Notes under the pieces: model-generated
The model's input: the letters and a program-made list of their open reading frames with translations, nothing else
Told to the model about the DNA's origin: nothing
The model's database searches: none
Virus record (IMG/VR): IMGVR_UViG_3300035698_021428
DNA length: 49,956 nucleotides
From: a virus
Reading direction: 5' to 3' (one strand)
Shown: one piece after another, positions 649-32,729 of the stretch
Numbering within the stretch: position 1 is the first letter of the stretch
Layout: every line of letters starts with the position of its first letter
Made by a program: the position numbers and the translations under genes

Positions 649-1803
649 ATGACAACACCTAATTGGACAGAAGACGTTAGAGCAAAAGGTAACACAAAAA
701 TTACCTGGGCCAATCATCTTTGCGATGACGAGCAAGCGAACGTTGTCGGTCGCGTCGTTTTTGTTCGATCATTCGGTTCGTTGACCTTCATCGTTATCCG
801 CGATGCGGCAGATAGTATACAGATTGGACTGAAGGGCAAGATTGCTCCGCCGCCGATGTGGAGCATTATCTCCGTTCATGGCGTAACTGGTAAGACCAAG
901 AAGGGCGAGCATACTGTTTGGACAGAGAAGTTTGAGTTGCTTGCTGAATGCAACGGAAATATGCCTGACAAGTTTCATGGCATCGAAAATGCTGAATACA
1001 TTTACAACAATAGGCCAGCGCATCTTATCGCTAATCCTGATCATTCTCATAATCTAATGATGCGTAGCCGAATTATTCGGGAGCTTCGTAGACGGCTTGA
1101 AGATGTTCATGCCTTTATGGAAGTCGAAACTCCCTTATTGAACGATGAACCTACAGGTGCCAATGCTAAGCCGTTCATAACTCATCATAATGCAGAGAGC
1201 GAAGACAAGTACCTGAGAATTGCTCTTGAGGTTCCGCTGAAGAAAGCTATCATTGCAGGTTTTCCTAATGTTTTTGAAATCGGTCGTGTATTCAGGAATG
1301 AAGGCGTTGACCGAACTCACCGCCCTGAGTTTACGATGGTTGAGATGTATTCATCTCCTGGTACGCTACAGAACATGAAGGATCTGTTCATTGACCTTGT
1401 ATCTCATTTGCGTGGAGAGTATATCAAGATTCCGACCTATGAGTATGACGACCTTGTAGCTGAACATGGCGAAGATTTTGATGAGCATATGCAGGAACTT
1501 TGCTTCGTCGCTGGTCAGCCTCTTGAACAGACACCGCTTTGCAAGGCTCGTGCTGATGGAAAGGCTGATAGGTTCGAGATCTTCGGTAGAGGCTTCGAGA
1601 TCGCCAACGCTTTTCAGGAGGTTCATACCGCCGAGGAACAGAGAGAGCGTCTTAGCGGCCAAACAGAAGGCTCTGATGACGGCTTGATTGGCGCTCTTGA
1701 GTACGGAATGGCTCCAACAGGCGGAATGGGTATCGGTATTGACCGATTGGTTATGTACCTGCTTGAAATAAACAATGTAAGAGACGTAATTCTTTTTCCA
1801 TAA
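649..1803 (+). CDS. lysS: lysyl-tRNA synthetase, class II (compact, 384 aa)
   Basis: N-terminal OB-fold-like VVGRVVFVRSFG...IRD; motif 2 FRNEGVDRTHRPEFTMVEMY; motif 3 GGMGIGIDRLVMYL...RDVILFP, all matching recalled LysRS signatures; ~75 aa shorter between motifs 2 and 3 than E. coli LysS. Confidence 0.85.
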   Translation: MTTPNWTEDVRAKGNTKITWANHLCDDEQANVVGRVVFVRSFGSLTFIVIRDAADSIQIGLKGKIAPPPMWSIISVHGVTGKTKKGEHTVWTEKFELLAECNGNMPDKFHGIENAEYIYNNRPAHLIANPDHSHNLMMRSRIIRELRRRLEDVHAFMEVETPLLNDEPTGANAKPFITHHNAESEDKYLRIALEVPLKKAIIAGFPNVFEIGRVFRNEGVDRTHRPEFTMVEMYSSPGTLQNMKDLFIDLVSHLRGEYIKIPTYEYDDLVAEHGEDFDEHMQELCFVAGQPLEQTPLCKARADGKADRFEIFGRGFEIANAFQEVHTAEEQRERLSGQTEGSDDGLIGALEYGMAPTGGMGIGIDRLVMYLLEINNVRDVILFP

Positions 1804-1844
1804 AGAATTCAGTTTAATTTATACAATAAGTCGATAAAAAAGTT

Positions 1845-2036
1845 ATGGCAATCAATGATATTAAGAAACTAGGAGATCAGCTAGCAGGGCTCAAGACTCC
1901 TCAGGAAGCTCGTCAAGTTGGGCAGTCGCTTGATGCTGCTCTCAATGGACAAGAACCGCCAACAGCAGGAGAAGCCATTACAAAGGATCCTGCGCCAACT
2001 CAGCCGCCTTTATCAGCGGCAGCACGCCATCAGTGA
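1845..2036 (+). CDS. hypothetical small protein (63 aa); 3' end overlaps a tRNA gene
   Basis: ORF only; overlaps tRNA at 2026. Confidence 0.25.
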   Translation: MAINDIKKLGDQLAGLKTPQEARQVGQSLDAALNGQEPPTAGEAITKDPAPTQPPLSAAARHQ

Positions 2037-2112
2037 GCGGCAGGACGCTCACCAGCCTCCTAAGCTGGCTCCTTCGAGAGAAGGTTTCTAGGTTCGAATC
2101 CTAGTGATGGCG
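2026..2112 (+). tRNA. type II (long variable arm) tRNA, apparent anticodon CCU (reads AGG); identity uncertain
   Basis: Hand fold: acceptor gccatca/tgatggc perfect 7 bp; D-stem gagc/gctc; anticodon stem ccagc/gctgg with loop ctCCTaa; 19-nt variable arm with ccttc/gaagg stem; T-arm ctagg-ttcgaat-cctag; discriminator G. Confidence 0.6.
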
Positions 2113-2130
2113 CTTTGACTAACAGATATT

Positions 2131-5115
2131 TTATGCTTCTCTTGCGGCTAAATATATTTTGTTATCTGCAAGTTGAACAAAAGTTAGCGGCATTCCGCCT
2201 AAAGCGGCTTCATAATACGCAACTGGAGTGCCTGTAACTTGCGTAAAAATAAGTTGGTTGTTTGCATTTACTGATAATGGAACTCCATTCCATGTAGTAG
2301 AATATGCAACTTGCGTTAAATAATTTCCAAGATCTTGTTCTTCAGTTATTGGCATATATCTTCTATTTTGGCTATCTATATATGTAGCAAATCGAGTGCC
2401 TTTATAAACAAAAGTTTGCGAATGTAGGTTTGCTGATTGGTTTTCAACCCAAACTCCAAGAGAGTTTTGACCAAGAGAATTTGTAAAATAAGTTGATGAT
2501 ATTCCTCCTAGAGAGACTACTCCTCCTGTTTCTGTAAAATCAGTTGAATAAACTACATTGAGACTATGGTCTTCGCTACTATTGGCAACTATAGCAATAG
2601 GATTTCCTCCTATTCTAACTGCATGATTTGCCATAATAGTAAAATTACTTACTGTAGAAGCAGCGGGCGGTAATGGCGTTGTTATCTCTTCAGGAACAAT
2701 TAGTATGGCAGCAGCCTTTGTTCCTGCTGGTTGACCGAATATAGTAGAAAATGGATCTTGTCCGCCGCTGCCGCCTTCGCCTGCTCCGACAGCGCTCGTT
2801 GCTCCTACATGAATATATCCAGCAGGCCAAGATCCATTAATAATACCTTCTATGTTTTGGCTTCCGCTAATTAAGCCAGTTAATATCAATGCTCGGCCTC
2901 TCGGCGGCGTAGAAACAGAAACTAATCGTCTTCCTGCTGCGGCAGTTACGCTAATAGTGCTTGCAACAGAAACAGTATCATCGACATCTATTTTCCAAAC
3001 ACCGACACCTGCAAAGAGAGTTGTTGCGCTCATTGTTACTATAAGATCCCCAGTAGAAGATGCTTGGACTTTATACCATTGAGTATGAAATCGATTAGAT
3101 GCTGAACTCGCATTGTCATCAGCAAGCTCTATAGTATCAAGATCGATTTCTCCGCCTGTTGGGGTTGTGTCATATACGGTACCTGCAACATCTAAAGTAA
3201 TAACATCTTTAAGCGTTCCGTCATTCATGACAGATATAACGCCAACAATATATTCACCTGTTGCAGCAAAAGCATTTGAAATTGTTTTTGTTGTAAAGTT
3301 GACAGTAGAAGCTTCAAATGCTTTGAATGCTGTTTCTGAACCATGATCAGAATAAACGTTTCTATCTACAGAAGAAGTGTTGGTAAGAGTTGCGCTCTCA
3401 GCAGTTGAATCTATTGTGAAATCATATTCTTGACTTGGATCAATCCCGCTAAAAGATGTTCCAAAACGAGCATTATTTGCCCTGGAAAGAGCTTGAGACT
3501 GAGTTAGCTCTGTTCCGTCCCATATAGCAATTCTGTTTACCTGGCAAGGCGCAGAATCATCATAATTTGTGCCATCGAAACGAACGCCTGAGGTTGTTAT
3601 TTTTGAATTTCCTGTACCGCCATAACTGTCTGCTGTCTTTGTTCCTAATCCTCCGAGCACAACTTCGTACTGAAAATCTTTAACAAGTTTACCATTTATA
3701 TAGATAAGCCAATGGCCATTGCCATCATGTGTTAATAAAATATGATATTCTTTTCCTGGCATAAGAGGTATGCCAGAGTTGAGATTATAGCTATTGATAC
3801 TTCCGCCTGTTCTCTCGATGGAAAGATAATTAAATTGCATACATCTCAGAACTAGGCCTTTCCAACCGTTAGCATCTGGATCTACTGTTGCAATATATAA
3901 ACCTCCATTGAATTCATTTGCTACAGCAAGACCAGTTGGAGGAACTTGGGGGTCGCCTTCTCCTAGAAGAAGCAAAGGATGAAGGATGCCCTCGCTATTG
4001 CCATCTACAATTCCATCTGTATCGAGAGGATATCTAGGGATGCCATACCATTCCATTGTTGATGGGCCAGCGTCTATAGAGTTATTTGCAAGAACAATTC
4101 GACCATCAGAGTTATTTAGCTTAACAGCTTTTGTATTTCCTTGAGCTAAATTTTCTTCTTCTTGTCCTGATAATTCAGAAAAAACTAAGGCATAATAGTT
4201 TCTTCCTGAAATATTGTAATCGCTATTAACAGTTATACCAGAAGCAGAAATGCCTACTATTTGACTATCTGTTTTTATAACGAGAGTCCCCCCTCCATCG
4301 TCATCAAGTATCTTGTAGTTATTTGAAAGCATGTCTTTTGTAATAAAAGCATGCGGCTCAATATTTAGGTTTCCTGCTGTATTGGGACCATCTATAATAA
4401 AAGCGGCAGAGCCATTTGTTGCTATAGAAATAACTCTTCCGTTTGAACCATCGCCTGTCCATGAAACAACTTCAAAATCACTTACAGGAGACTGCGTTGT
4501 AAAGAAAGCTAAAGCTTCTATACCTTCACCTAGAGATATGCCGTTATTTTGATTAACCTCAACATCACCTGTTAAAGTAATAGTTCCGTTTCCCAAAGCA
4601 GAAATACGGGCAGCAATGCCTCCTCCATAATCCATATGGATGTTATTTGGCATTGCCTGCGCATAAACAATGGCAGGCTGACTGCTATCCCTCTTTACAA
4701 AAACAGCTTGAGGAGTTGCGTTCTCATTACTGAAAGAGATAGTTCTGTCTGCTGTAGCGTTGCCTATCCAGGAGGTCTCTCTGAACATTCCGGAGCCATT
4801 ATCTTTTATGGCAAGATAATAATAAGCTATTCCGTCTACATTCGCATTTTCTGAAGCTCTGAATCCTTTTCCGTTGAATGGGTCAAAAACATGTCCGCCT
4901 AAAGGACCAATAGCCTCTTCGGAAGGACTAGCATCGAATCTTTGCGATCGACCATGCCATGAAATATTCGTTTTCCAAATAACTGGCAAATCACTAGCTG
5001 GAGCTATGATAACTAAATCAGGTTCAAAATCAAGATTGATAGCAAGCGATTCAGAGGAAACACCAGTATTACGAGATCCAGTATATGTTCCGACAGCAAT
5101 TAGGGGGGATGGCAT
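2131..5115 (-). CDS. large structural protein with LamG/concanavalin-like domain (tail-fibre or receptor-binding-like), 994 aa
   Basis: 994-aa ORF, Gly/Ser/Thr/Asn-rich, no signal peptide; segment GKEYHILLTHDGNGHWLIYINGKLV resembles LamG jelly-roll; SD-like aagga upstream of ATG. Confidence 0.55.
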   Translation of the reverse strand: MPSPLIAVGTYTGSRNTGVSSESLAINLDFEPDLVIIAPASDLPVIWKTNISWHGRSQRFDASPSEEAIGPLGGHVFDPFNGKGFRASENANVDGIAYYYLAIKDNGSGMFRETSWIGNATADRTISFSNENATPQAVFVKRDSSQPAIVYAQAMPNNIHMDYGGGIAARISALGNGTITLTGDVEVNQNNGISLGEGIEALAFFTTQSPVSDFEVVSWTGDGSNGRVISIATNGSAAFIIDGPNTAGNLNIEPHAFITKDMLSNNYKILDDDGGGTLVIKTDSQIVGISASGITVNSDYNISGRNYYALVFSELSGQEEENLAQGNTKAVKLNNSDGRIVLANNSIDAGPSTMEWYGIPRYPLDTDGIVDGNSEGILHPLLLLGEGDPQVPPTGLAVANEFNGGLYIATVDPDANGWKGLVLRCMQFNYLSIERTGGSINSYNLNSGIPLMPGKEYHILLTHDGNGHWLIYINGKLVKDFQYEVVLGGLGTKTADSYGGTGNSKITTSGVRFDGTNYDDSAPCQVNRIAIWDGTELTQSQALSRANNARFGTSFSGIDPSQEYDFTIDSTAESATLTNTSSVDRNVYSDHGSETAFKAFEASTVNFTTKTISNAFAATGEYIVGVISVMNDGTLKDVITLDVAGTVYDTTPTGGEIDLDTIELADDNASSASNRFHTQWYKVQASSTGDLIVTMSATTLFAGVGVWKIDVDDTVSVASTISVTAAAGRRLVSVSTPPRGRALILTGLISGSQNIEGIINGSWPAGYIHVGATSAVGAGEGGSGGQDPFSTIFGQPAGTKAAAILIVPEEITTPLPPAASTVSNFTIMANHAVRIGGNPIAIVANSSEDHSLNVVYSTDFTETGGVVSLGGISSTYFTNSLGQNSLGVWVENQSANLHSQTFVYKGTRFATYIDSQNRRYMPITEEQDLGNYLTQVAYSTTWNGVPLSVNANNQLIFTQVTGTPVAYYEAALGGMPLTFVQLADNKIYLAAREA

Positions 5116-5250
5116 AAAATAAGTTCCTTAATAGTGATCTACTATAGTAATCGACATATTAGCTATTTTGATACACATCAGTCTTTTTCCTTTACTGGTG
5201 AGATTTTTGTGTGATAGAATATTTAAAGTCACCAAAAAAGGAAAGCGATT

Positions 5251-5457
5251 ATGGAAGAATTTATCGAACCTGAAATTGAAACCGGCATTCCCTGCTATAT
5301 CTGCGGAAAGCATTCAGGACTTGATTGCGCTGGAAGAGCGCCAGATGAAGCAACCAAATGCAAATTCTGTTTCAAGAAATGGTTGGACGAAGAACGTAGA
5401 TCACAAGAAGAACACGAAAAAGCCTATTTTAAAAAGCTCAATGACGAAAAATCCTAA
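5251..5457 (+). CDS. small zinc-ribbon-like protein (68 aa)
   Basis: CYICGK...C..C...CKFC pattern; SD aaaggaaag upstream. Confidence 0.5.
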   Translation: MEEFIEPEIETGIPCYICGKHSGLDCAGRAPDEATKCKFCFKKWLDEERRSQEEHEKAYFKKLNDEKS

Positions 5458-5590
5458 CAATATACGAACTGCGTGGAATACGATTATTTACAAAGAAATA
5501 CTCCGATGAGGAAGGAAGTGTAGATCGCAGGGGGTATACTCATCAAGCAGAGTTGAAAGCCACTGACCATCAGCGGCAAGGAATAGAACA

Positions 5591-5707
5591 ATGAAGAATG
5601 CAATGAACTCAACATGCGGGACGACAGGAACGACACAAAGCGGCGGCGGTAGCTGCGGTTTTACATCGTCCCATACCCCAACGAGGTCTTGCCCTTCAGG
5701 TTTGTAA
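5591..5707 (+). CDS. small Cys/Gly/Thr-rich peptide (38 aa) MKNAMNSTCGTTGTTQSGGGSCGFTSSHTPTRSCPSGL
   Basis: SD aagga 8 nt upstream; followed by intrinsic terminator; overlaps an antisense ORF so coding status uncertain. Confidence 0.25.
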   Translation: MKNAMNSTCGTTGTTQSGGGSCGFTSSHTPTRSCPSGL

Positions 5708-5737
5708 CATAATACAGACAATCAGAAGAGACGTAAG

Positions 5738-5762
5738 GCCTAGTTGAAAGACTAGGCTTTTT
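5738..5762 (+). terminator. rho-independent terminator
   Basis: gcctagt-tgaaag-actaggc hairpin followed by TTTTT. Confidence 0.6.
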
Positions 5763-5775
5763 CGTTTAACAGTAT

Positions 5776-5850
5776 GGCCGTCTACCAAAAATGGACAAAC
5801 GGCTCTGATTGCAAATCAGATGTGTGCGAGTTCGAGTCTCGCGGCGGCCT
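5776..5850 (+). tRNA. tRNA-Cys (GCA)
   Basis: Acceptor ggccgtc/ggcggcc (one G.U); anticodon stem tctga/tcaga with loop ttGCAaa; T-arm gcgag-ttcgagt-ctcgc; discriminator U as expected for Cys; weak D-stem. Confidence 0.65.
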
Positions 5851-5863
5851 TTGGAGAAATATC

Positions 5864-6052
5864 ATGAAAAAACCAACACTGGTTATAGGGACAATTGGAC
5901 ATGACGATCATGGAAAAACCAGCCTTACTCATGCCATGATGCTGAGAGCTAAAGCAAAAGGTAGAAACATAAACGTAGGTTGCGACATGGGCATGACTGA
6001 ACAAGGAAAATATCTGCTAGACAAAATATCTAGCATGAATAAAGATCAATAA
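5864..6052 (+). CDS. EF-Tu N-terminal (G1 P-loop) like fragment, 62 aa
   Basis: Strong SD ggagaa; KPTLVIGTIGHDDHGKTSLT matches EF-Tu VNVGTIGHVDHGKTTLT; diverges after ~30 aa; the listed ORF start at 5774 lies inside the tRNA-Cys gene and is rejected. Confidence 0.5.
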   Translation: MKKPTLVIGTIGHDDHGKTSLTHAMMLRAKAKGRNINVGCDMGMTEQGKYLLDKISSMNKDQ

Positions 6053-6071
6053 AATTAGCAGGTATGGCATA

Positions 6072-6491
6072 TTGGCTGTGCATCACTCTTCCAAGGTGAA
6101 TAAAGGAGTTCGATTCTCCTTACCTGCTTTAGAAAGGAAAATTACAAACGAGTTCCAACCAATAGATAAAAGAGAATTTGATGGATGGCTTGACCCAAAA
6201 GGAAACTTCTATCAAACCCGATGTCATATAACATGGGCATCCGAAGATATAAAATACGAGAATAAAGAACTCTACAAAGCGTACAGGAAATGGTTCAGAC
6301 AAAGAAAATGCTTATCGAGTGAAACAGCGGTTGAATTTTTGATGAAGTATCATGGTTGGTGGAAGAGATCATCGATCGCAAATAGCAAATTGTGGTTGGG
6401 AGAAATGCCAGCTACTACTGCTCAAAGAAGATACATCAACAACGACATGGGCGAAAGACAGGATAACGGATATTTTGAAAAAGGATATTAG
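6072..6491 (+). CDS. hypothetical protein (139 aa)
   Basis: ORF; ends at TAG 8 nt before tRNA-Gly. Confidence 0.45.
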   Translation: MAVHHSSKVNKGVRFSLPALERKITNEFQPIDKREFDGWLDPKGNFYQTRCHITWASEDIKYENKELYKAYRKWFRQRKCLSSETAVEFLMKYHGWWKRSSIANSKLWLGEMPATTAQRRYINNDMGERQDNGYFEKGY

Positions 6492-6498
6492 GTAAAAA

Positions 6499-6570
6499 GC
6501 GAGATTGATGTTAATGGTAGCATGACTGACTTCCACTCAGTTCGTATCAGTTCAAATCTGGTATCTCGCA
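6499..6570 (+). tRNA. tRNA-Gly (TCC)
   Basis: Acceptor gcgagat/atctcgc; D-stem atgt/gcat; anticodon stem actga/tcagt with loop ctTCCac; T-arm atcag-ttcaaat-ctggt. Confidence 0.75.
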
Positions 6571-6648
6571 TTTGGGCACAAGCTCATCGGAGACTTCGGT
6601 CTTCAACGTTTTTGACAAGTGAATAGTTAGTTTTAAGTAATTTTCATT

Positions 6649-6679
6649 CCGCGGCGAAGGTTCGCCCTGCCGCGGTTTT
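6649..6679 (+). terminator. GC-rich hairpin followed by TTTT, immediately upstream of the tRNA
   Basis: ccgcggc...gccgcgg followed by tttt. Confidence 0.4.
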
Positions 6680-6762
6680 GCTGATGTGAGCCGAATTGGT
6701 AAGGCAGCACTCTTGTAAAGTGCCGAGGAAACTCACTGCAGGTTCGAGTCCTGTCATCAGCT
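6680..6762 (+). tRNA. type II tRNA, anticodon loop cttgtaa (reads as UGU/Thr in a 7-nt loop; Tyr-like architecture); identity uncertain
   Basis: Acceptor gctgatg/catcagc perfect; anticodon stem gcact/agtgc; 14-nt variable arm with gag/ctc stem; T-arm gcagg-ttcgagt-cctgt. Confidence 0.6.
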
Positions 6763-6769
6763 TTCAAAC

Positions 6770-7010
6770 GAGAAGGAGAACAGCCAACCCATCGCTCTAC
6801 CCGTCACTGTTTCCATACGGATGAGAGGAAGGTCAGGACTGCACTTCGCAAAAACTCAGGAGGCCGTAAAATAGCCGTTCGAACTGGGGAGGCAGCAACC
6901 TCAAACAAGCCTAGCGTGGGCGAAGCGCTATAATGGTTGGGTTGGGGGCCACAAGATAAATGATGGGATAGAACAGGATCCTGCCTACGGGCACTTTCCT
7001 TCTCGTTTTT
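6770..7010 (+). ncRNA. candidate structured RNA (unassigned)
   Basis: ~240 nt with no credible ORF; 5' cgagaaggag pairs with 3' ttccttctcg (9/10) followed by TTTTT; internal GTTCGAA T-loop-like element and a gctataatgg -10-like box. Confidence 0.2.
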
Positions 7011-7031
7011 CAGTAGCATTGGTGTTAACGA

Positions 7032-7382
7032 TTAGCATTTCTGGTTATGTCTATTTTTTCTACCATTGCCTTTATTTAGATTACCGTAATTCGGCGTAAG
7101 AGAGTGACAATTAGGGCATAGTATTTCCAAATTAGTTTCTACATTATTTTTGTAGTTTCCATCTTTATGATGTATAGTAAGGGGCTTTTTGTTTGTAATT
7201 TTGTTTACTCTATCCCAATTACATTTTTCGCATTTTTCTCCTCGAATCAAATAAAGATATCTTCTAACAAAAGGTGAAATATTCTCGCCAGCTAGACCTG
7301 TTTTTTGTCCATTTTTCCATTTGCTAACATTCGTTTTAAAAACAAATTCCGAACTACATTTACGAGAGCAACATTTATTCAA
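7032..7382 (-). CDS. HNH endonuclease (116 aa)
   Basis: HHKDGNYKNNVETNLEILCPNCH HNH signature with flanking Cys pairs. Confidence 0.75.
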   Translation of the reverse strand: MNKCCSRKCSSEFVFKTNVSKWKNGQKTGLAGENISPFVRRYLYLIRGEKCEKCNWDRVNKITNKKPLTIHHKDGNYKNNVETNLEILCPNCHSLTPNYGNLNKGNGRKNRHNQKC

Positions 7383-7452
7383 ATGAAAACTGACGAGTGA
7401 AAACTGAATGGACAGAACGAGAAGCTGTCGCCGGACGCATAACCGGCATTTT

Positions 7453-7552
7453 GTCTGCGTAGCTCAACGATAGAGCGCCCAACCTGCGATACAGTGTGCC
7501 CTTGGGAGACTGTCAGCTATGGGATGTTGCTGGTTCGAATCCAGTCGCAGAC
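7453..7552 (+). tRNA. tRNA-like gene (~100 nt) with canonical acceptor, D- and T-arms but an interrupted anticodon arm (possible 12-nt insertion/intron or degenerate); anticodon undetermined
   Basis: Acceptor gtctgcg/cgcagac perfect; D-stem gctc/gagc; T-arm gctgg-ttcgaat-ccagt; cccaa...ttggg could be the anticodon stem but encloses 19 nt; additional 22 nt before the T-stem. Confidence 0.4.
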
Positions 7553-7740
7553 TTTTTGGATCGTTAGAGGTCTTCCACAGTTTTTATTCGGGCACGAATA
7601 ATGTTATTCTGGATCAAAGGAAGAGCCGGGTCTTTAGCCCTGTAGGAATCGCTGTCAAGGCGAGGAATCTCGAAATCACATTATGCGCATATGTCTTCGA
7701 GCAACGAGATCGGTGAAAGGCCGGCATAACGATCTGATAT

Positions 7741-7813
7741 TCCGTCTTAGCTCAATTGGCAGAGCAGCATACTCGTAATATGCAGGTTATCGGTTCGATG
7801 CCGGTAGACGGAT
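7741..7813 (+). tRNA. tRNA-Thr (CGT)
   Basis: Acceptor tccgtct/agacgga; D-stem gctc/gagc; anticodon stem gcata/tatgc with loop ctCGTaa; T-arm atcgg-ttcgatg-ccggt. Confidence 0.75.
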
Positions 7814-7886
7814 TTTAGTGAAAAAGAAGGAAAGCCAATATCGGATTTATTCTCAAAAATTAATGCCAAATTAAATCGATAAACTT

Positions 7887-8705
7887 TTATTCTGCATATG
7901 TTCTACGATACCAACCTTCATCTTGTTTGTGTTTAGATTCATTTAAGAACCAAGTGTAGTTACCTTTTTCTACAGATCCGTCTAACTTCTCGCTTCTAGC
8001 GGAACCATCTAAGAATCCAAAGTTGTTCTTATGATCTCCGTGCCAGTCGCCGTTGACAATATCTTTCTCGTATTTTTCTTCATCTGTATATCTACCTGAA
8101 TCCATCTGCGCCGCATCGCCGAGGACTATAAATCGAGATGGAACTGTCATGATATTGTGTATTTTCATTCGTTCGGTATAATTTCCGCCGCTACGATAAA
8201 GATTTTCAAACCCTTTTTTCGAACCTATATCACAATATAACCAGTCATTTGTAAAGTAACTTGTACCTAAAGCTCTCCCAACTGTGTGTTGATCTTGCTC
8301 ATTATGCCAAACAGTAGGCTCGCCGCTAGCGTAGTAACTTGTCCCGTTGTCTAACGGGCATGCAAAGATTTCTCCTCGTAAGCCAGTTGGGTAATATGCA
8401 TTTACTGGTCGAGCCTCTCTAAGAGTAAAGATATCTAAATCTGGATCATCAATAGCATCAAGAGATCCGCCCCACATCCATCGAACATTTCTTTCATAGT
8501 GCTCATCTGAAACAGGTACATTTTCATCATTTGAATCTGCATACATCGCCCAAGAAAGCAAATGCTGTCTTTGGTTGGATAAGCACTTAAGATTCATGGC
8601 AGTTTTTCTAGCAGAAGCAAGAGACGGAAGAAGAATAGCTATTAGAAGAGCTATGATGGATATAGAAACCAGCAACTCGATGAGGGTAAAACCTTGTTTG
8701 CGCAT
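7887..8705 (-). CDS. prepilin-type N-terminal cleavage/methylation domain protein, DUF1559 / H-X9-DG-like (272 aa)
   Basis: N-terminus MRKQGFTLIELLVSISIIALLIAILLP; C-terminal HGDHKNNFGFLDG; architecture typical of Planctomycetota. Confidence 0.75.
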   Translation of the reverse strand: MRKQGFTLIELLVSISIIALLIAILLPSLASARKTAMNLKCLSNQRQHLLSWAMYADSNDENVPVSDEHYERNVRWMWGGSLDAIDDPDLDIFTLREARPVNAYYPTGLRGEIFACPLDNGTSYYASGEPTVWHNEQDQHTVGRALGTSYFTNDWLYCDIGSKKGFENLYRSGGNYTERMKIHNIMTVPSRFIVLGDAAQMDSGRYTDEEKYEKDIVNGDWHGDHKNNFGFLDGSARSEKLDGSVEKGNYTWFLNESKHKQDEGWYRRTYAE

Positions 8706-8841
8706 ATTTTACTCCGTAAGAATTAACTATGTATATATGCTTGTTTTTCGATAAAAATCCTTCATTGCAAAATCTACTCCCCAAGTGTGGCGGTAAAAAA
8801 TTAGTGTCATACATTTTTGGTATCATATGAAGAAAGGAGTT

Positions 8842-9297
8842 ATGATGTCTAAGAAAAACGAAGATCATAAGATATATCTAACTTATGAATCTGGCGAAAG
8901 CGGCGGAGGAAATGTGCCAGGAGAATCTGGCCCATATTGCCGACAAGAAGATTCCTATGTAACATTCGAACTTCTTGGAGCATGGACAAAAGAATCAGAC
9001 TGGGTTGAAACAGTAACCGTTAACTTCTTGCCAAAAAGTAACGAAAGAATTTATGTTGTAGTAGTTCGTTATTCATCAGGACATACTTTCGGAAATTCAA
9101 GCGGGCACTGGCACATTGAGGGAGTATACAACAACCGAGACAATGCTGAAGCAATTGCCAAGACAATCGTTAATAAAACCTACAAAGAAGACGGCTACCT
9201 GCCTTGGGAAGGGTACTTCGAACGTCTCGAAGAGGTGAGTGTGGAAAGTATGGCCCCTGATGAAGGCAGGACCGTTTATAAAAATAAGAGTTACTAG
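8842..9297 (+). CDS. hypothetical protein (~151 aa)
   Basis: SD aaggag just upstream of tandem ATGs at 8842/8845; ends at TAG followed by a terminator hairpin. Confidence 0.5.
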   Translation: MMSKKNEDHKIYLTYESGESGGGNVPGESGPYCRQEDSYVTFELLGAWTKESDWVETVTVNFLPKSNERIYVVVVRYSSGHTFGNSSGHWHIEGVYNNRDNAEAIAKTIVNKTYKEDGYLPWEGYFERLEEVSVESMAPDEGRTVYKNKSY

Positions 9298-9304
9298 GTA
9301 TTCG

Positions 9305-9336
9305 CTGGTGCTGGACTAATCTTCAGCACCAGTTTT
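9305..9336 (+). terminator. rho-independent terminator
   Basis: ctggtgctg...cagcaccag 9-bp stem followed by TTTT. Confidence 0.6.
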
Positions 9337-9369
9337 CAAGTGCAATAAAAATATGATAAACTTGAGTGT

Positions 9370-9912
9370 ATGATTGATTACTCAAAAGATGATTGGTACG
9401 CCCTCGTAAGCAGAACCTACAAAGACCGCACAGAGGCTCGCTCAGGGCTTCCGCTCATGAACCATATCGATGAAGGTTTCAGGATCCTTGAGGCCATAGG
9501 AGCGAATGACGCTGCTATGAGAGCTTATTTCATCCATCCTCTTGTTCAGGATGATGAATCGCTCAAAAAATTCTTCTACGGCGAAGAACGAATAGAAAAT
9601 ATGTACGGCGCTGACTGGAACGGAGAAATCCTTCTTCTAGCCATGGAATACAGATCAGTAGCTAACGCATTTCTCTCTGACATGACTATTCTAGGAGTAG
9701 ACCAGATTCGTTTGAGCCCCCTAAAAGAAGTCAACGATATGTTGATTGCAAGCAAAGTTTTAGATCGCAAGAATTTTGAGAATCTTAAGAACATTTCTCG
9801 TGATTGTTTTGATATCCTTGACAAATATTTTAAGCTATGGCTTGAACGTTTAGGGATTTCAGAAAGGCAATATCAGAAACTTTGTAAAATATCGGTGAGA
9901 ACCTCATCATGA
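9370..9912 (+). CDS. hypothetical protein (180 aa)
   Basis: ORF; stop/start overlap (ATGA) with next gene. Confidence 0.5.
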   Translation: MIDYSKDDWYALVSRTYKDRTEARSGLPLMNHIDEGFRILEAIGANDAAMRAYFIHPLVQDDESLKKFFYGEERIENMYGADWNGEILLLAMEYRSVANAFLSDMTILGVDQIRLSPLKEVNDMLIASKVLDRKNFENLKNISRDCFDILDKYFKLWLERLGISERQYQKLCKISVRTSS

Positions 9913-10286
9913 ATAATGAAGAAGAATTGCTCAAAGCAGCTTTAGATCGTTGCGAGATCACTCATGAAGAGTTATCTTCTCACAAGATCTTTTATGAGCA
10001 GATATTCATGGGAGCAGGAGCTAGCCATAACTCTAAAGATAAAAATCGGTTCAATATGGATTTTTCAGGACAGGACTGCGCTTTACTTTACGAAAAAGTG
10101 AGAATAGCTTTATCTATGCTTTCTGGAGTCCAGCAATTAGAAACAAGCATATGTTCTTCACAAATGGAACCCGATGAGCACCTAGAAACGATTGAGTGCG
10201 AAACAGGACAATTAGAAATGATTGTTCAAGAAATAGCTATGGCTCTTACTGGAAAAGAAATAGGATTCAAAAATGAAAACGACTGA
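9909..10286 (+). CDS. hypothetical protein (125 aa)
   Basis: ORF, translationally coupled. Confidence 0.45.
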   Translation: MNNEEELLKAALDRCEITHEELSSHKIFYEQIFMGAGASHNSKDKNRFNMDFSGQDCALLYEKVRIALSMLSGVQQLETSICSSQMEPDEHLETIECETGQLEMIVQEIAMALTGKEIGFKNEND

Positions 10287-10701
10287 CAAAGTAGAACTTG
10301 TTGTTGGGGATTCTTATTGGTATGTCCAACTAGGACAAAGAATGACTGATGGGTCTTGGTTCTCTTCGCATCCAGTATATATATTTCCAGCAAAATATCT
10401 CGGACCAGAAGACAAGATGCACAAATTCGAACTAACATGCGCAATTGAAGGTAAAACTGAGCTTCTAGGCGGCTCTGATGAATATACAAGAATCAATGGT
10501 AGGATCTATGCTAATCAAATAAACGCTTGTAAAAGATCTGTGACTGTGAACAAAAAAGGTCGCAGGTTTCAGATGAGCAGAGTAAGAGAATTCAACAACG
10601 TTATTGCTGGACTCAAAACCACAATAGGAAAAATCGAAAAGCCTACCAGAAAAATGTGTTGTTGGCATTGTCACGGAACAGGCAAGCAAAATTACACCTG
10701 A
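10273..10701 (+). CDS. hypothetical protein (142 aa), C-terminal CxHCHGTG
   Basis: ORF. Confidence 0.45.
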   Translation: MKTTDKVELVVGDSYWYVQLGQRMTDGSWFSSHPVYIFPAKYLGPEDKMHKFELTCAIEGKTELLGGSDEYTRINGRIYANQINACKRSVTVNKKGRRFQMSRVREFNNVIAGLKTTIGKIEKPTRKMCCWHCHGTGKQNYT

Positions 10702-11158
10702 TAAAAGAGCGTGGAGCATTGAGCGCGCATCCACTGAACGCCGAATCACTGAGCGACATAGTAGTCTTTTTGACTACATGAGCAAGTGAAGCTCTAAAGC
10801 GAACAAGGCGTTGTAGCAGATCCAAACGGACTGTAAAATCTCAAACCTTGTATGTCCCAACCATCGCAGCCCTGTCAGCCATCGAGCATGACAAGGTTAC
10901 TTGAAGGGTAGAGGCATGGATCTGCGATAAGCAGGTTGATGATTGGGAGAAAGTATACATGTTGGTAGTATGGAACCTTTCTGCGCTTAGTTGATCAGTG
11001 AAACAGATCTATAAAAATCTAACCAGCGCATTTACTTCGGGCCGCAGGACCGAAGTATGTGCCGAGCGAAGCGAGGCTACACAGAGAAAGACGTATATAA
11101 TATCTCAAAAATGACGAAGAAGTAATAGTGAGATCTTTTCAGCAACAGATCTTTAGAT

Positions 11159-11241
11159 GGTGGCTATGGCAGATTGGTAATGCACCTGGTTGTGGACCAG
11201 GAACCGTAAGGTTTATGCGGGTTCAAATCCCGTTAGTCACC
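11159..11241 (+). tRNA. tRNA-His (GTG) with G-1 and an unusually long (15-nt) variable arm
   Basis: G-1 then acceptor gtggcta/tagtcac; anticodon stem cctgg/ccagg with loop ttGTGga; variable region aaccgtaaggtttat contains an aacc/ggtt stem; T-arm gcggg-ttcaaat-cccgt; discriminator C. Confidence 0.6.
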
Positions 11242-11249
11242 CTTTAGTT

Positions 11250-11321
11250 TGGGCTTTAGTGTAATCGGTAGCACAACAGTTTTTGATACTGTCAGTCTGG
11301 GTTCAAGTCCCAGTTGCCCAA
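11250..11321 (+). tRNA. tRNA-Gln (TTG), acceptor stem with two T-T mismatches
   Basis: Aligns closely with E. coli tRNA-Gln; anticodon stem acagt/actgt with loop ttTTGat; T-arm ctggg-ttcaagt-cccag. Confidence 0.55.
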
Positions 11322-11336
11322 TTTGAAAGGAAATAT

Positions 11337-11648
11337 ATGTCATCGCAATTTCCATCTAAAGTAAGTCAACTACTTCAAAATTTTGATGGTTGGCTTATCG
11401 GTTCTGCAGCTAATCCTGATAATCAAAACCCTAGAGACTTTGATATTCTCATCCCTTTTCATATGTGGCATAAAGCTTGTCTCTCAATACCTGAAAATGC
11501 CATTCCAAATAGCTTTGGCGGATGGAAGTTTATTGATAATAATGTTGAAATAGATATGTGGCCAGGCGATTTATCTTATCTTGCAGCAAGACCTAGATTT
11601 AAATACGCTTACCACTTAGCTAGCGATACCAGAATAAGTAAAATATAA
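11337..11648 (+). CDS. hypothetical protein (103 aa)
   Basis: SD gaaaggaaa upstream of ATG 11337; the listed ORF start at 11283 lies inside tRNA-Gln and is rejected. Confidence 0.5.
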   Translation: MSSQFPSKVSQLLQNFDGWLIGSAANPDNQNPRDFDILIPFHMWHKACLSIPENAIPNSFGGWKFIDNNVEIDMWPGDLSYLAARPRFKYAYHLASDTRISKI

Positions 11649-11672
11649 TCAAATACTTGAAAGGAAAAACAA

Positions 11673-12300
11673 ATGAGAATCGAGAAACAAGCAAAAGGCG
11701 TTAGACTACTCATGAACGACGAGGCTAAGAACCGGAGGTTGGTTCATCAATGCTTGCGTTGAAGCATCAGAAGCCGCTGGCTTCAATGAAATACTGCTTC
11801 CGCTCATTGAGCCAGAAAGTATCTATGAAGAAAAAGCGGGCACTGAGATTCTTAATCAAATGTACACCTTCAAAGACAAGGCAGGAAGAAACCTCTGTCT
11901 AAGACCCGAAGGTACTGCTACTGTCCAACTTGTTGCGCAGAAAATGCGGAACATGAAAGATGTGAAGCTATGGTATGAAACTCGTTGTTGGCGATACGAG
12001 CAGCCGCAGGCTGGGAGATACCGAGAATTCACTCAGTTCGGCGTAGAGTGGCTGAACCCCCGAAACCCTTCAGAGGCCCGAGAAAGTCTAGAAACGCTCG
12101 CCAGAGCGATTGTAGAGCGGCTGGGAGTTGATTACGAGTGGAACGGAACTGCCAAACGAGGATTGGCGTACTATATTGAAGATGGTTTTGAACTAAGCGT
12201 TCCGTCGCTTGTCGCTCAGAAGCAGGTGATTGGCGGTGGGGCTTATACTGAAGGCATCGGATTCGCCGTTGGCGTAGATCGTATTGCGTTGGCAATGTGA
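11673..12300 (+). pseudogene. minimal histidyl-tRNA synthetase-like catalytic core (~209 codons) with an apparent +1 frameshift near 11742; lacks the anticodon-binding domain
   Basis: Frame 0: MRIEKQAKGVRLLMNDEAKNRRLV (HisRS N-terminal GMNDY-like) ending at TGA; frame +1 continues FINACVEASEAAGFNEILLPLIEPESIYEEKAGTEILNQMYTFKDKAGRNLCLRPEGTA (motif 2), RYREFTQFG, GGGAYTEGIGFAVGVDRIAL (motif 3); junction in GGTTGGTT repeat. Confidence 0.6.
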
Positions 12301-14991: not shown

Positions 14992-15540
14992 ATGTGTAGC
15001 AGCGATCGCAAACGCGCAAAAAAAGACCTAAGGCTTGCTACTTTTGTCGCAATATGTTCAATCCTTGCTTTTGTTCCGATTTGGTATTTTGCAATAAATG
15101 GCAGTATTATTGCTTCAACCTCAAACGATAATGATCCATTTCTAGTTGATATAAATATGATGTATATTGGCGATTTTGGGCTTGGTATTAGCACCTACCT
15201 TGATGAGAATCCACAATCAAGCGTCAAAGAAGCCTATAATGCAGCCTTATTGGATTCTGGGGCTAATTTCCGTAAAGCAATGAGCACGTTCACTGTGTAT
15301 CTAAATCCTAATCGTGAAATGTGGAAAGATTACTCACGATCAAAGGCAAGAAATGAAGCAATAAAACTTTTGATTCTTGCTAAATCTGTAGATAAAACTG
15401 GCGAGTATCTTGACCTGGTTATACTTGAGCATAGTAGCTGGATCGTTCGTAATCAAATTCTAACAGAAGAACTTGAAAAGCGACATCCTATGACAATATT
15501 TTCACAGTCAATATTACCAAATGATTTCATAGCAAAGTGA
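14992..15540 (+). CDS. membrane-anchored hypothetical protein (182 aa)
   Basis: SD gggagg upstream of ATG 14992; one N-terminal TM segment. Confidence 0.45.
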   Translation: MCSSDRKRAKKDLRLATFVAICSILAFVPIWYFAINGSIIASTSNDNDPFLVDINMMYIGDFGLGISTYLDENPQSSVKEAYNAALLDSGANFRKAMSTFTVYLNPNREMWKDYSRSKARNEAIKLLILAKSVDKTGEYLDLVILEHSSWIVRNQILTEELEKRHPMTIFSQSILPNDFIAK

Positions 15541-15585
15541 GGAAAAAGTTGCTAGACTGTGGGTTTCTTGAATCAGGGAGACAAG

Positions 15586-16215
15586 ATGTCTGAGCAAAAA
15601 AACGTATTGCCTAATAGCGACTGCAAAACCGGCGAAGCCAGTGCAATTAGGGATAAACACCCTTGCGAAGTTCCTCGTGATTATGTCTGTTCCATTTGCG
15701 ATCACAAAGGATCACTACATAGCGTTGGCATGATTCTTGAACGAGGCGATGACAGGGAAGACGGTGAAGACCAATACGCCTGCCCTAAATGCTTCTGGGA
15801 GCGAACCCCAATAGGAAAACACACGCCAGAGCCCTGGCATTGGCACATGGAAGATAGATCCACGATGTTTATTTCGGGCCTTCGTGATTACATCAAATAT
15901 CCTATTCTGAATGCAGCAAGATGCACAGCATGTCAAGATGCATGCGTTAATAATTTTCCTTGCGGATGGCCTTCTAAAGCTAATGCTGATCGTATCTGTA
16001 GTTGTGTCAACGCATGTACAGGTATTAAAGATCCTGAAAAAACAATAATTGAACTAAAGAGCGCCTTGCAAGATACTCTAGTGTTTGTAGGCAAAATAAT
16101 GAAAAATAAAAGGGATGCCGACCCAAACTATGATGAGTTCAATAACAAAGAATCAGAGATTTATGATAAACTTCACAGCGCTAGCCTGGCACTTAATAGT
16201 AAATATGGATGGTAG
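15586..16215 (+). CDS. Cys-rich hypothetical protein (209 aa)
   Basis: SD gggaga; multiple CxxC pairs; TAG stop overlaps the next start (ATGGTAG). Confidence 0.5.
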   Translation: MSEQKNVLPNSDCKTGEASAIRDKHPCEVPRDYVCSICDHKGSLHSVGMILERGDDREDGEDQYACPKCFWERTPIGKHTPEPWHWHMEDRSTMFISGLRDYIKYPILNAARCTACQDACVNNFPCGWPSKANADRICSCVNACTGIKDPEKTIIELKSALQDTLVFVGKIMKNKRDADPNYDEFNNKESEIYDKLHSASLALNSKYGW

Positions 16216-31079: not shown

Positions 31080-32729
31080 ATGGCAACCAAACTTGGAAAA
31101 GGCGAGTATCCCAGCGATCATTCGCCAGAAGACTTTAAATGCTTTGGCCCTCCTGCTCAGGAAGACGGTCAGTTTGACGGCATGATGATGGCTGACATGG
31201 GCTGCTTCAAGCAAGATGGTACAGATTCCAACAAATTCTACCATGGCGCAGTTGTTCAATCCAAAAAAGATGATAGCTGGTATGCCTACTATGAATGGGG
31301 CAGAACTGGGAAAGGTTCTTCTGATAAGCAATTCGTTTGTTGTTCGTCGAAAGAAGAAGCTGAACAAGTATTCTGCAAGCAGATGCACTCCAAAAATGAC
31401 AAGCGAGGCGAATGGGTCAAGATAGGCAGTAAAGACATTCTAAGAGCGAAGACAGGCAAAGACTGCTACCTTATCCGTCCGCTCGCAAAGCGATCTCATG
31501 GCCTTCCAGACGCTCAGACAATCGTCCATGACGATAGCGGCAAAGCTGGCAGCGCCGTCGCTAAGAAAACAACCAAAAAGACCGGAAAGAAAACCAGCAA
31601 AAAGATTGCTAAGAAAAAATCAAACGTTGATCCAAAGACTCTTAGTCTTATGAAGGATATGAACGTTGCAGCGGTTGAATTTACTCGCTCGCAGGTTGAT
31701 AGCGATGCAGTCCCAACTCAAGGCGTTATCGATGAAGGCAGAGATGTTCTTATCGAAGCGGAAAAAAGAGTTAAGAAAATTGGATCAAAGCTTGAAGAAC
31801 AAATTAGCGATAGAGACCTTCGAGATCTAACGTATCATCTCTATTCTCGAATCGGGAAGCCAAAGCCTCTCAATACGCTTGAATCTGCCTGGATTCTTTC
31901 TCAAGACAACATCATGCGTTGGCGAATGGACCTTGATACATTTGAGCAGGCATTATATGCTCTTGACCTAGGCATTGGCAGCGATACTCAGAATACCTTT
32001 GATCCGTTCAATGGCATGAATATTGAGATGATTCATCTCGACCCGACTAAAACGGCTGAAGGTCAATTTATTCACAATTGGATGCCTGGCGCAACGAAAA
32101 ACGTCCACGGGCACGTTGGCGACATGAGTATTGTCAACGCATGGGGCGTTCGTCAAACTGATTTTGCACCAAAATTTGAAGCAACTGCTGCAAAGATTGG
32201 TAATCGCAATTTCACCCCATCTGACAAACCTATCAAGCAGCCCCGAAAACGATCTGATATCTCGCCAGAAATGGCTAAACTATTCGATCAAGCAAATGTC
32301 AATCTCTTATTCCATGGAACAAGATCTGTCAATGTTCCTGGCATTCTTCGCACAGGGCTAAGGCTCCCCAGAGAGCTTGTTGGAGTTGTCCTTACTGGCG
32401 CAATGTTTGGACCCGGTATCTATTGGGCCGATGATTGGAAAAAATCAGACGGTTACACTTCTCGACCAGGAACTTATTGGTCAAGAGGCGGGGGACAGGT
32501 CAAAGGTCGCAAGGCTTTTATGTTTGTTGCCAATGTTGCTCTTGGCAATCCTCATATTGCTCGCGGTCCTCAAGGATATACTGCTCCGCCGAAAGGTTGC
32601 GATTGTGTTGCAGGTCTTGCTAATAAGAGCAGCGTAGCCAACAACGAATGGATTGTTTACGACAGTATGCAAAATTCTCTTACATATCTTATTGAATACG
32701 AAGTTTCAGGCAGCAGCCGTCGCTGGTAA
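31080..32729 (+). CDS. poly/mono(ADP-ribose) polymerase-like protein: WGR domain, Lys-rich linker, helical regulatory region, PARP catalytic domain (549 aa)
   Basis: WGR YYEWGRTGKGSSDKQ; catalytic H-Y-E: LFHGTRSVNVPGILRTGLR (H-G-T), GPGIYWADD (Tyr), NEWIVYDSMQNSLTYLIEY (Glu), matching PARP1 LWHGSR / GKGIYFAD / YNEYIVYD. Confidence 0.8.
   Translation: MATKLGKGEYPSDHSPEDFKCFGPPAQEDGQFDGMMMADMGCFKQDGTDSNKFYHGAVVQSKKDDSWYAYYEWGRTGKGSSDKQFVCCSSKEEAEQVFCKQMHSKNDKRGEWVKIGSKDILRAKTGKDCYLIRPLAKRSHGLPDAQTIVHDDSGKAGSAVAKKTTKKTGKKTSKKIAKKKSNVDPKTLSLMKDMNVAAVEFTRSQVDSDAVPTQGVIDEGRDVLIEAEKRVKKIGSKLEEQISDRDLRDLTYHLYSRIGKPKPLNTLESAWILSQDNIMRWRMDLDTFEQALYALDLGIGSDTQNTFDPFNGMNIEMIHLDPTKTAEGQFIHNWMPGATKNVHGHVGDMSIVNAWGVRQTDFAPKFEATAAKIGNRNFTPSDKPIKQPRKRSDISPEMAKLFDQANVNLLFHGTRSVNVPGILRTGLRLPRELVGVVLTGAMFGPGIYWADDWKKSDGYTSRPGTYWSRGGGQVKGRKAFMFVANVALGNPHIARGPQGYTAPPKGCDCVAGLANKSSVANNEWIVYDSMQNSLTYLIEYEVSGSSRRW

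Follow-up and report, generated by a model that had tools for sequence, protein, structure and literature searches.

How is a synthetase gene expressed when its beginning and its body are written in different reading frames, and what does such a gene encode? The question is raised by a viral DNA record of 49,956 nt (IMG/VR record IMGVR_UViG_3300035698_021428), here called the window; all coordinates are positions in this whole stretch. At 11673-12300 it carries a gene resembling that of histidyl-tRNA synthetase (HisRS), in which 24 N-terminal codons (11673-11744) lie one frame behind the body, which ends with a stop codon at 12298-12300. An earlier reading of this DNA from the sequence alone (the original prediction) had regarded the gene as reduced or fragmentary, within a cluster of translation genes, and had left room for the frameshift being damage or a read error. 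The comparative analysis reported here indicates that the gene, referred to below as mini-HisRS, belongs to a large family of proteins of about 210 amino acids (aa), and that it is probably expressed by a programmed +1 frameshift which would act as a gauge of charged tRNA-His.

On the plus strand of the window, the zero-frame open reading frame (ORF) starts with the ATG at 11673, runs for 29 codons and ends at a TGA at 11760-11762; its first 24 codons represent the conserved N-terminus of the family and are homologous to that of members encoded in a single frame. The body, in the +1 frame of the same strand (11746-12300, 184 codons and the stop), contains class II motifs 1-3 and the LRPEGT sequence, and profile searches, structure alignment and AlphaFold2 (AF2)/Foldseek modelling show that it is without insertion and anticodon-binding domains. 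No ATG, GTG or TTG is present in the body frame from its upstream stop up to 11860, a position that lies beyond motif 1. The junction reads CGG AGG TTG GTT CAT CAA TGC TTG CGT TGA. The shift site proper, GTT-CAT (11742-11747, plus strand), is where the original prediction had correctly placed the frameshift, at the 3' end of its GGTTGGTT string. GTT (11742-11744) is the presumed P-site codon, from which pairing would move to TTC (11743-11745), and CAT (11745-11747, His) is the putative vacant A-site codon; GGAGG (11734-11738, plus strand), a candidate Shine-Dalgarno (SD)-like stimulator recognised by site comparison, ends 3 nt 5' of the shift codon. The N-terminal frame appears to be under coding selection, since among homologues the differences per codon position (0.43, 0.30 and 0.59 for the first, second and third) are greatest at the third. 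A tRNA-His gene (11160-11242) lies upstream of mini-HisRS, and an Rfam search for known cis-regulatory RNAs near the synthetase genes gave none.

Homologous loci were taken from IMG/VR, GenBank phages, GTDB genomes and JGI metagenomes, and the frame of the N-terminus was scored against that of the body in each. On a conservative count, a +1 shift is needed in at least 59 loci with 41 distinct 33-nt sites, originating from phage contigs of 350-600 kb, the cultured Sinorhizobium phage Phosso, Thalassospira xianhensis and several metagenome-assembled genomes. The requirement was found in about half of 40 IMG/VR loci as well as in additional loci from that database, in 8 loci (T. xianhensis included) out of the first 39 analysed from GTDB genomes, and in 32 of the 44 JGI metagenome loci analysed. 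In a 477-kb Tara contig (L003), whose protein shares 71% amino acid identity, the N-terminal segment is likewise one frame behind the body. Depending on the locus, the two frames overlap by 8-215 nt, and both are open and conserved across 45-70% amino acid identity. The gene sits inside tRNA arrays, usually with a tRNA-His gene within about 1 kb.

Shifted mini-HisRS genes are mis-annotated as N-terminally truncated coding sequences (CDS) or as split ORFs. When databases were searched with the joined protein, over 2000 proteins were found, mostly of 208-216 aa, about 60% identical and mostly uninterrupted, and the closest relatives were 194-197 aa long and covered just 88-89% of the query. In Phosso (PV764938.1, 4096-4686; L047:2965-3555), the CDS annotated as "histidyl-tRNA synthetase" begins at an internal ATG of the +1 frame, so that 25 conserved N-terminal codons, which lie further upstream in the zero frame, are left out of it. 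Gene callers trim the metagenomic relatives P0121-P0128 in the same way, P0121 consisting of the 146-aa tail alone.

The junctions share a common signal. Every +1 locus has (C/G)TT-CAY at this point, with a T-T-C-A core that is invariant in 41 of 41 sites. The A-site codon is CAT in 31 sites and CAC in 10, specifying histidine in all of them, while the first base of the P-site codon is C in 24 and G in 17. GGRGG occupies positions -8 to -4, leaving a 3-nt spacer before NTT, in 29 of the 41 sites, and some SD-like G-rich tract is found in 37. A zero-frame stop lies 0-5 codons past the His codon in 39 sites, in 17 of them directly after it; some relatives read AGG GGG TTG GTT CAC TGA. In-frame homologues possess neither the His codon nor the G-rich tract, and have V, I or L where shifted genes always show the landing codon TTC. 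These comparisons of sequence make it very probable that the junction is a site of programmed recoding.

The point of the shift can be placed narrowly. In loci L026 and L061, a TAG in the +1 frame immediately precedes TTC, so the shift cannot lie upstream of the NTT codon region. A shift at AGG-N, the initial candidate, is excluded by these same stops and was replaced by NUU-CAY after the site comparison. The junction residues in the window, ...RR-L-V|I-N..., fit the x-[VIL]-[LI]-N pattern of in-frame homologues, and an upstream shift would always introduce Phe at a position where in-frame homologues never carry it. The landing codon is TTC in all sites and TTT in none, which fits a role of TTC as a landing codon pairing with G34 and not as a translated Phe codon. 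For Phosso, the junction peptide is predicted to be ...NAIDTLRGCL|IEADYEEVILPSIWEQQTFIDK (...TLRGCL-IEADYEEV...).

The signal, confined throughout to NUU-CAY, occurs at two independent positions in the gene. The window groups with L003, L012, L013, L180, L185, L187 and L189 (clade A), while Phosso, Thalassospira and most contigs of 400-600 kb form clade B. The distance from the conserved KG-x-R motif to the site is 15 residues in clade A and 23 in clade B, placing the two positions 8 codons apart; from the site to the E(I/V)(L/I)LP motif there are 15-16 codons in clade A and 7 in clade B, and the total length of the N-terminus is unchanged. In-frame genes lie between the two clades on a neighbour-joining tree, where clade A sits within a set of in-frame relatives. 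That one cassette should arise at different places in a gene specific for histidine, each time with an identical A-site codon, would be hard to explain except by selection for the signal. In addition, locus L191 (Ga0187766_10112627) contains the cassette TTG GAG TGT CTT CAT 11 codons before E(I/V)LP, which matches neither clade position and may represent a third independent placement.

In-frame mini-HisRS genes are located on Pseudomonas megaplasmids of about 1 Mb, namely the P. fluorescens plasmid pMPCFBP13716 (L100, 971 kb) and a plasmid of Pseudomonas serbica (L113, 1.06 Mb), and, among loci L105-L125, in chromosomes or contigs of Undibacterium, Massilia, Hahella, Pleionea and Cellvibrionaceae. 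Therefore, the family extends beyond phages.

The joined 208-aa protein matches the hisS profile TIGR00442 (7e-45) and PF13393 (1.7e-22). The TIGR00442 score of 153.7 bits is below the hisS equivalog cut-off of 286.75, and the score of 82 bits against TIGR00443 (HisZ) is below the cut-off of 271.65 for that model; in comparison with PDB structures, HisRS was matched at 1e-33 versus 7e-9 for HisZ. The protein is about half the size of canonical bacterial HisRS (around 420 aa), with which it shares class II core motifs 1-3, LRPEGT, RGLxYY and GGGxY and which is its best match in both sequence and fold. Alignment to Staphylococcus aureus HisRS extends over residues 4-146 and 235-317 only, skipping the insertion domain, the loop before motif 3, which is shorter in mini-HisRS, and the entire C-terminal anticodon-binding domain. 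LRPEGT, motif 2 (RYExPQxGRYREFxQFG) and motif 3 (G(F/W)AxGxDR) are invariant in the family alignments. An AF2 model (predicted local distance difference test 83.5, predicted TM-score 0.82) had HisRS structures as its top 18 Foldseek matches (E down to 4e-16, TMq 0.75-0.83), E. coli HisRS being found at 4e-16 with TMq of 0.77-0.83, and HisZ scored clearly lower; the model indicates that mini-HisRS has the fold of the HisRS catalytic domain. As judged from the alignments, membership of canonical HisRS fails on domain architecture and equivalog score, and the active-site core appears to be HisRS-like rather than HisZ-like. The G-1:C73 pair is the dominant identity element of HisRS and is read by the catalytic domain, so that charging without an anticodon-binding domain is plausible. 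Mini-HisRS is rather likely to be a true synthetase.

The proposed sequence of events can be followed along the gene in the window. Ribosomes would start at the ATG at 11673 and read 24 codons, bringing GUU (11742-11744) into the P site and CAU (11745-11747) into the A site. When His-tRNAHis is ample, CAU would be decoded and translation would stop four codons on, at the UGA at 11760, to give a 29-aa peptide. When it is scarce, the A site would stay empty and the peptidyl-tRNA could re-pair one base forward on UUC, presumably with the help of base pairing between 16S rRNA and the GGAGG located 3 nt upstream, as in prfB; after this slip, translation in the +1 frame would proceed to 12300 and yield the 208-aa enzyme. 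The enzyme would then charge tRNA-His by way of the G-1:C73 identity element at the acceptor end, which is present in the adjacent phage tRNA-His. Across the family, peptidyl-tRNA carrying Leu or Val on (C/G)UU would slip to UUC, and the shifted fraction would rise as His-tRNAHis falls. Coupled to charging by the enzyme, a shift at a His codon would close a homeostatic loop of negative feedback, like that of RF2 and UGA in prfB. Rightward shifts at hungry codons need a P-site tRNA able to re-pair at +1. That the frameshift reports His-tRNAHis is somewhat more probable than not.

The closest known counterpart is the E. coli prfB site, AGGGGG-UAU-CUU-UGA-C, in which an SD-like tract is followed, after a 3-nt spacer, by CUU as the P-site codon and then by an A-site codon that is decoded slowly. 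Both systems have a G-rich SD-like tract 3 nt 5' of an NUU P-site codon, as in AGG GGG TTG GTT CAC TGA of some relatives against AGG GGG UAU CUU UGA C; both involve a +1 shift by re-pairing on UUN, as proposed for mini-HisRS, and a short dead-end peptide from the zero frame, and in both the controlling codon is one whose decoding the gene product should accelerate. Unlike in prfB, where the A-site codon is a stop, the mini-HisRS codon is a sense His codon, CAY, in all sites and the stop comes only afterwards; the cassette would regulate an enzyme resembling an aminoacyl-tRNA synthetase (aaRS) instead of a release factor, uses GUU besides CUU, and is present in only part of its family, at two positions. 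Slightly more likely than not is the reading that an RF2-type switch triggered by an unoccupied sense codon has arisen repeatedly, in huge phages and also in some bacteria, and that through it mini-HisRS would be made only when His-tRNAHis is short.

Attenuation in the his operon leader, other amino-acid attenuators and T-boxes also sense the charging of a specific tRNA (His-tRNAHis in the case of hisL) and adjust supply genes, but they act on transcription termination through upstream RNA structures, whereas the sensor proposed here is a single His codon within the CDS and its output is a change of frame. The yeast Ty1 site CUU-AGG-C and starvation-induced frameshifts in laboratory E. coli likewise combine a slow sense codon in the A site with re-pairing of the P-site tRNA at +1, and the Ty1 P-site codon is also CUU. 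In Ty1, unlike in mini-HisRS, a constitutively rare tRNA sets the ratio of Gag to Pol, and the E. coli cases are errors. The hungry codon of mini-HisRS differs from those of such systems in that it matches the specificity of the encoded enzyme, implying homeostatic control. Sensor-type programmed +1 frameshifts are very few, RF2 and antizyme being the textbook cases, and to our knowledge no synthetase has been described whose production is controlled by a frameshift responding to the charging state of its own tRNA. The literature consulted, of which coverage is incomplete and which included a 2016 review of recoding (PMC5009743) and a 2021 comparison of jumbo phages (PMC7824862), contained no frameshifted or miniature phage HisRS and no aaRS controlled by +1 frameshifting.

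Among other accounts of the split gene, decay or a technical error is of negligible probability. A 1-nt error could not be excluded from one window alone, and gene callers do split the ORF, as the 146-aa tail of P0121 illustrates. Yet the site, which contains no homopolymer run, reads identically in an independently assembled ENA contig (k141_193105), and the same shift recurs in the 59 or more loci counted above as needing it, from different assemblies that include finished genomes of cultured organisms; openness of both frames and third-position-biased variation are also contrary to a pseudogene or an indel. The N-terminal peptide and the body might instead be made separately, the body from an internal start, and assemble non-covalently. 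A +1-frame ATG does occur 8-9 codons upstream of the site in L003, L012 and Phosso and has been used by annotators, but in L003 this ATG arises from the GAT-GAA (Asp-Glu) codons of the zero frame; moreover, 12 of 32 loci, the window included, have no +1-frame ATG, GTG or TTG near the site, and in L026 and L061 the frame opens only at the landing codon. Such a split gene is highly improbable. A comparably low probability attaches to quadruplet decoding, in which a phage tRNA with an enlarged anticodon loop would read a four-base codon such as AGGU or NUUC, and this reading is, if anything, the more remote of the two. Unusual tRNAs are indeed encoded, including a tRNA-Arg(CCU) while the sites contain AGG, as well as tRNAs with odd anticodons in related loci. 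Against this, all window tRNAs drawn or scored by ARAGORN, tRNA-Arg(CCU) among them, have 7-nt anticodon loops, the AGG position is incompatible with the +1-frame stops of L026 and L061, the two P-site codons CUU and GUU would require two suppressor tRNAs, and the site is also present in bacterial hosts such as Thalassospira. More serious is the possibility that the +1 shift is real and programmed but constitutive, providing fixed low expression or a fixed ratio of 29-aa peptide to enzyme, with His as merely one workable slow codon and no sensing. Many programmed frameshifts set fixed ratios, and some of the sites are without an SD-like tract. If any slow codon served, variety would be expected, whereas the A-site codon is His in every one of the 41 sites, at two independently evolved positions and in a histidine-specific gene, and any mechanism based on a vacant A site is governed by how much cognate aminoacyl-tRNA is available. 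A constitutive shift is accordingly regarded as unlikely.

The nature of the product is a separate matter. It might not be a synthetase but a histidine-binding or His-AMP-forming protein, such as a HisZ-like regulator or a ligase with another acceptor, in which case the frameshift could still sense His-tRNA. The missing insertion and anticodon-binding domains, the score well under the hisS cut-off, the loss of the GGGRYD Arg in the clade of the window and the HisZ label given by NCBI to some members are all in line with this possibility, which is doubtful but deserves more weight than a constitutive shift. On the other side, the profile is far closer to HisRS than to HisZ, and catalytic motifs 2 and 3 are retained and invariant, unlike in HisZ; no hisG was noted nearby among the ORFs scanned, linkage to tRNA-His genes is consistent, and the logic of feedback through a His codon fits a charging enzyme.

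Returning to a programmed frameshift that gauges His-tRNAHis and controls a small HisRS, several points weigh against this interpretation. Around 10% of the sites have no clear SD-like tract (L034 and L063), and many family members are in-frame, so that the switch is optional. Re-pairing from GUU to UUC is weaker than from CUU to UUC, owing to a first-position mismatch. In GGGRYD, of which GGG-x-Y is kept, the window has Ala in place of the Arg and the relatives in its clade have Ser, Thr or Lys, although the Arg is retained in most of clade B, including Phosso; the insertion domain that is missing helps to clamp the acceptor stem in full HisRS. Part of the conservation of CAY could come from coding of Phe-Ile/Thr in the +1 frame, but Phe is absent there from in-frame homologues, no site uses TTT, and L026 and L061 fix the shift point. 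The efficiency of the frameshift and its response to histidine or tRNA-His are predictions.

If the proposed regulation is correct, it would be the first natural frameshift that senses an aminoacyl-tRNA and controls a synthetase, and a 208-aa HisRS core lacking the anticodon-binding domain would be a working synthetase. The widespread enzyme of about 210 aa may then define a minimal unit for charging tRNA-His, with bearing on how huge phages manage private tRNA pools in infection. The site is present in a cultured phage (Phosso) and a cultured bacterium (T. xianhensis), and the 30-nt cassette can be moved to a reporter; in synthetic biology it could also be used as a small in-frame sensor to report amino-acid or tRNA status.

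The second synthetase of the window, a class IIb lysyl-tRNA synthetase (LysRS) of 384 aa, is encoded by an intact ORF at 649-1803 (plus strand). It contains the tRNA-synt_2 domain (PF00152, 9.7e-60), motifs 1-3, the lysine-site residues and an N-terminal OB fold, the characters of class IIb; the OB-fold profile PF01336 gave only a weak match (20.5 bits against a cut-off of 27), with the region aligning to LysRS residues 59-150. The protein aligns to residues 59-305 and 369-488 of the Geobacillus stearothermophilus structure 3a74, with motifs 2 and 3 intact. Missing from the window protein are about 30 residues at the N-terminus, several loops and, between motifs 2 and 3, an insertion of about 60 aa. 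Because of these deletions, its score against NCBIfam lysS_bact (TIGR00499) is 314.5 bits, below the cut-off of 427.6. The domain losses foreseen for both synthetases were in this way confirmed by alignment to structures.

Fourteen database proteins (P0001-P0014) of 366-405 aa are 46-80% identical to this LysRS and make up a compact clade, whose members are found on phage-like contigs, while ordinary LysRS of 475-505 aa is at most 40% identical; an exact look-up of the window LysRS gave no record. In L003, a 384-aa LysRS lies two genes downstream of mini-HisRS, and the closest protein, P0001 (80% identity), shares the L003 layout with an upstream 4HBT thioesterase. The thioesterase gene of L003 (10751-11041) ends at 11041, which coincides with the start of the compact LysRS, and the 4HBT-LysRS pair is also present in L097 and L098. 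L003 additionally encodes, at 15055-15657, a 200-aa protein with PCRF and RF-1 domains, a shortened release factor. The sequence comparison indicates that the window LysRS is an intact member of a conserved, phage-borne compact clade and not a decayed copy. For both synthetases the closest homologues are equally compact, and not the full-length chromosomal genes that would have marked the window copies as decayed.

Between tRNA-Cys (5776-5850) and tRNA-Gly (6057-6129), a 62-aa ORF (5864-6052, plus strand) is preceded by GGAG about 8 nt upstream of its ATG. Its first 26 residues resemble beta1, the P-loop and helix A of EF-Tu and are followed by GCDxGMTxEG(K/R). The match to GTP_EFTU (4.6e-5) covers profile positions 2-36 only, and in hhalign residues 2-27 correspond to EF-Tu 9-34 only, comprising beta1, the P-loop GHxxHGKT and the start of helix A. 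The protein has the G1 motif only and, because G2-G5 and domains 2 and 3 are absent, cannot be a GTPase. A phmmer search of the full library gave 13 matches only, the best of which are 66-108 aa long, align end to end with 37-50% identity and have in common M..K...G.(L/I)G(H)..HGKT(S/T)L..A and GCDxGMTxEG(K/R); the 15 members recovered by a profile search were all of metagenomic origin. Searching the loci collected for this analysis with the family by tblastn gave no matches. Three homologue contexts appeared phage-like: a tRNA array, the neighbourhood of Mu Gam and a UvrD gene that contains an intein, and a contig of 402 kb; two of these three had no tRNAs nearby. Descent from a tufB operon was rejected, as small homologues that align over their whole length are also found away from tRNA arrays. 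The 139-aa ORF downstream of the 62-aa gene is unrelated to its counterpart in L093. Sequence comparison indicates a conserved small protein of a rare family from phage contexts that copies the P-loop region of EF-Tu; it might, as a guess, be a decoy or mimic of the EF-Tu N-terminus.

The profile searches for the three genes (tRNA-synt_2 for LysRS, TIGR00442 for HisRS and GTP_EFTU for the 62-aa ORF) thus returned the expected families. For the small ORF, the EF-Tu-like P-loop start and the ribosome-binding site of the original prediction held, and its interpretation as an EF-Tu fragment of the tRNA-tufB type did not. The picture of fragments gives way to two conserved clades of miniaturised synthetases, a conserved small protein and a previously undescribed prfB-like cassette with a His codon.

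The window has a GC content of about 41%, with most genes on the plus strand. Megablast of 12.5 kb against GenBank phages gave no nucleotide match, and among the window ORFs scanned there was no capsid, terminase or other structural phage gene. The nearest relatives of both synthetases are located on IMG/VR or Tara viral contigs of 350-600 kb that are rich in tRNA arrays, and the window is most likely part of a huge phage because the closest relatives of the genes studied lie on such contigs. The view that the element carries its own translation parts is borne out by the same relatives. Like the genomes of huge phages and giant viruses, it combines tRNA arrays, a tmRNA and synthetases, compact LysRS and mini-HisRS recurring on contigs of 350-600 kb; unlike other aaRS complements of huge phages, one of its aaRS genes carries a recoding switch and both synthetases come from conserved miniaturised clades.

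Of the tRNA genes that ARAGORN identified in the window, 10 serve standard amino acids and two have the anticodon CUA; a tmRNA was also called. Found by both ARAGORN and Rfam, on the plus strand, were tRNA-Cys(GCA) at 5776-5850, two copies of tRNA-Gly(UCC) at 6057-6129 and 6499-6570, tRNA-Thr(UGU) at 6680-6762 (83 nt, long variable arm), tRNA-Thr(CGU) at 7741-7813, tRNA-His(GUG) at 11159-11242, and tRNA-Gln(UUG) at 11249-11322. The ARAGORN span of tRNA-His, which has a long variable arm, begins at 11160, and G-1 is genome-encoded at 11159 opposite C73. An 88-nt tRNA-Arg(CCU) at 2026-2113 (plus strand), with a long variable arm and a 7-nt anticodon loop, was predicted by ARAGORN and is below the Rfam gathering score, so that Rfam did not report it. 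The tmRNA (26303-26655, or up to 26658; ARAGORN and Rfam) encodes the tag peptide ANSNPLRIAA.

In bacteria, long variable arms are normally limited to Leu, Ser and Tyr tRNAs. Class II-like long arms are seen on tRNA-His, tRNA-Arg(CCU) and tRNA-Thr(UGU) of the window, tRNAs of 83-88 nt; related loci also have long tRNAs (L009:5892-5978, L010:1870-1957 and many in L003 and L008-L013), and related huge-phage loci frequently contain pairs of a normal and a long tRNA for Asn, Ile, Lys, Gln, His and Arg. Rfam detected one further tRNA-like match of 101 nt at 7453-7553 (46.9 bits), which ARAGORN recovered only with introns allowed, as a tRNA-Ala(UGC)-like molecule that has a long extra arm and whose anticodon is followed by a 12-nt insert. 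In tRNA arrays of L012 (259-337), L013 (8385-8452), L027 (4176-4248) and L028 (5188-5270), ARAGORN reported tRNA-??? with two-base "anticodons", that is, non-standard anticodon loops.

The two tRNAs with the amber-suppressor anticodon CUA (42649-42720 and 45505-45577) flank genes for a SpoU-type RNA methylase (42988-43659) and a protein of the histidine phosphatase family (43646-44377); suppressor tRNAs(CUA) are also found near mini-HisRS in L028 and L031. The window ORFs show no sign of TAG recoding. As a cause of split genes, TAG recoding by these tRNAs was rejected: the HisRS junction has no TAG, and TAG recoding lengthens ORFs less than that of TGA or TAA.

Two further proteins stand out as unusual in a phage-like element: one of 778 aa (23791-26127) has major-vault-protein repeat and shoulder domains, and one of 549 aa (31080-32729) has WGR and PARP catalytic domains. 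The window also encodes a PAS histidine kinase followed by a response-regulator receiver (20070-22302), an HD_4 protein resembling RelA/SpoT-type hydrolases (45580-46179), a porin-like protein, a PhoD-like phosphatase, glycosyltransferases and a radical-SAM protein. On the minus strand, at 7887-8705, lies the gene for a protein of 272 aa that carries the prepilin-type N-terminal methylation motif (PF07963, 6e-8). Its sequence style appears reminiscent of the abundant pseudopilins of Planctomycetota and Verrucomicrobiota, which we take as a possible hint at the host.

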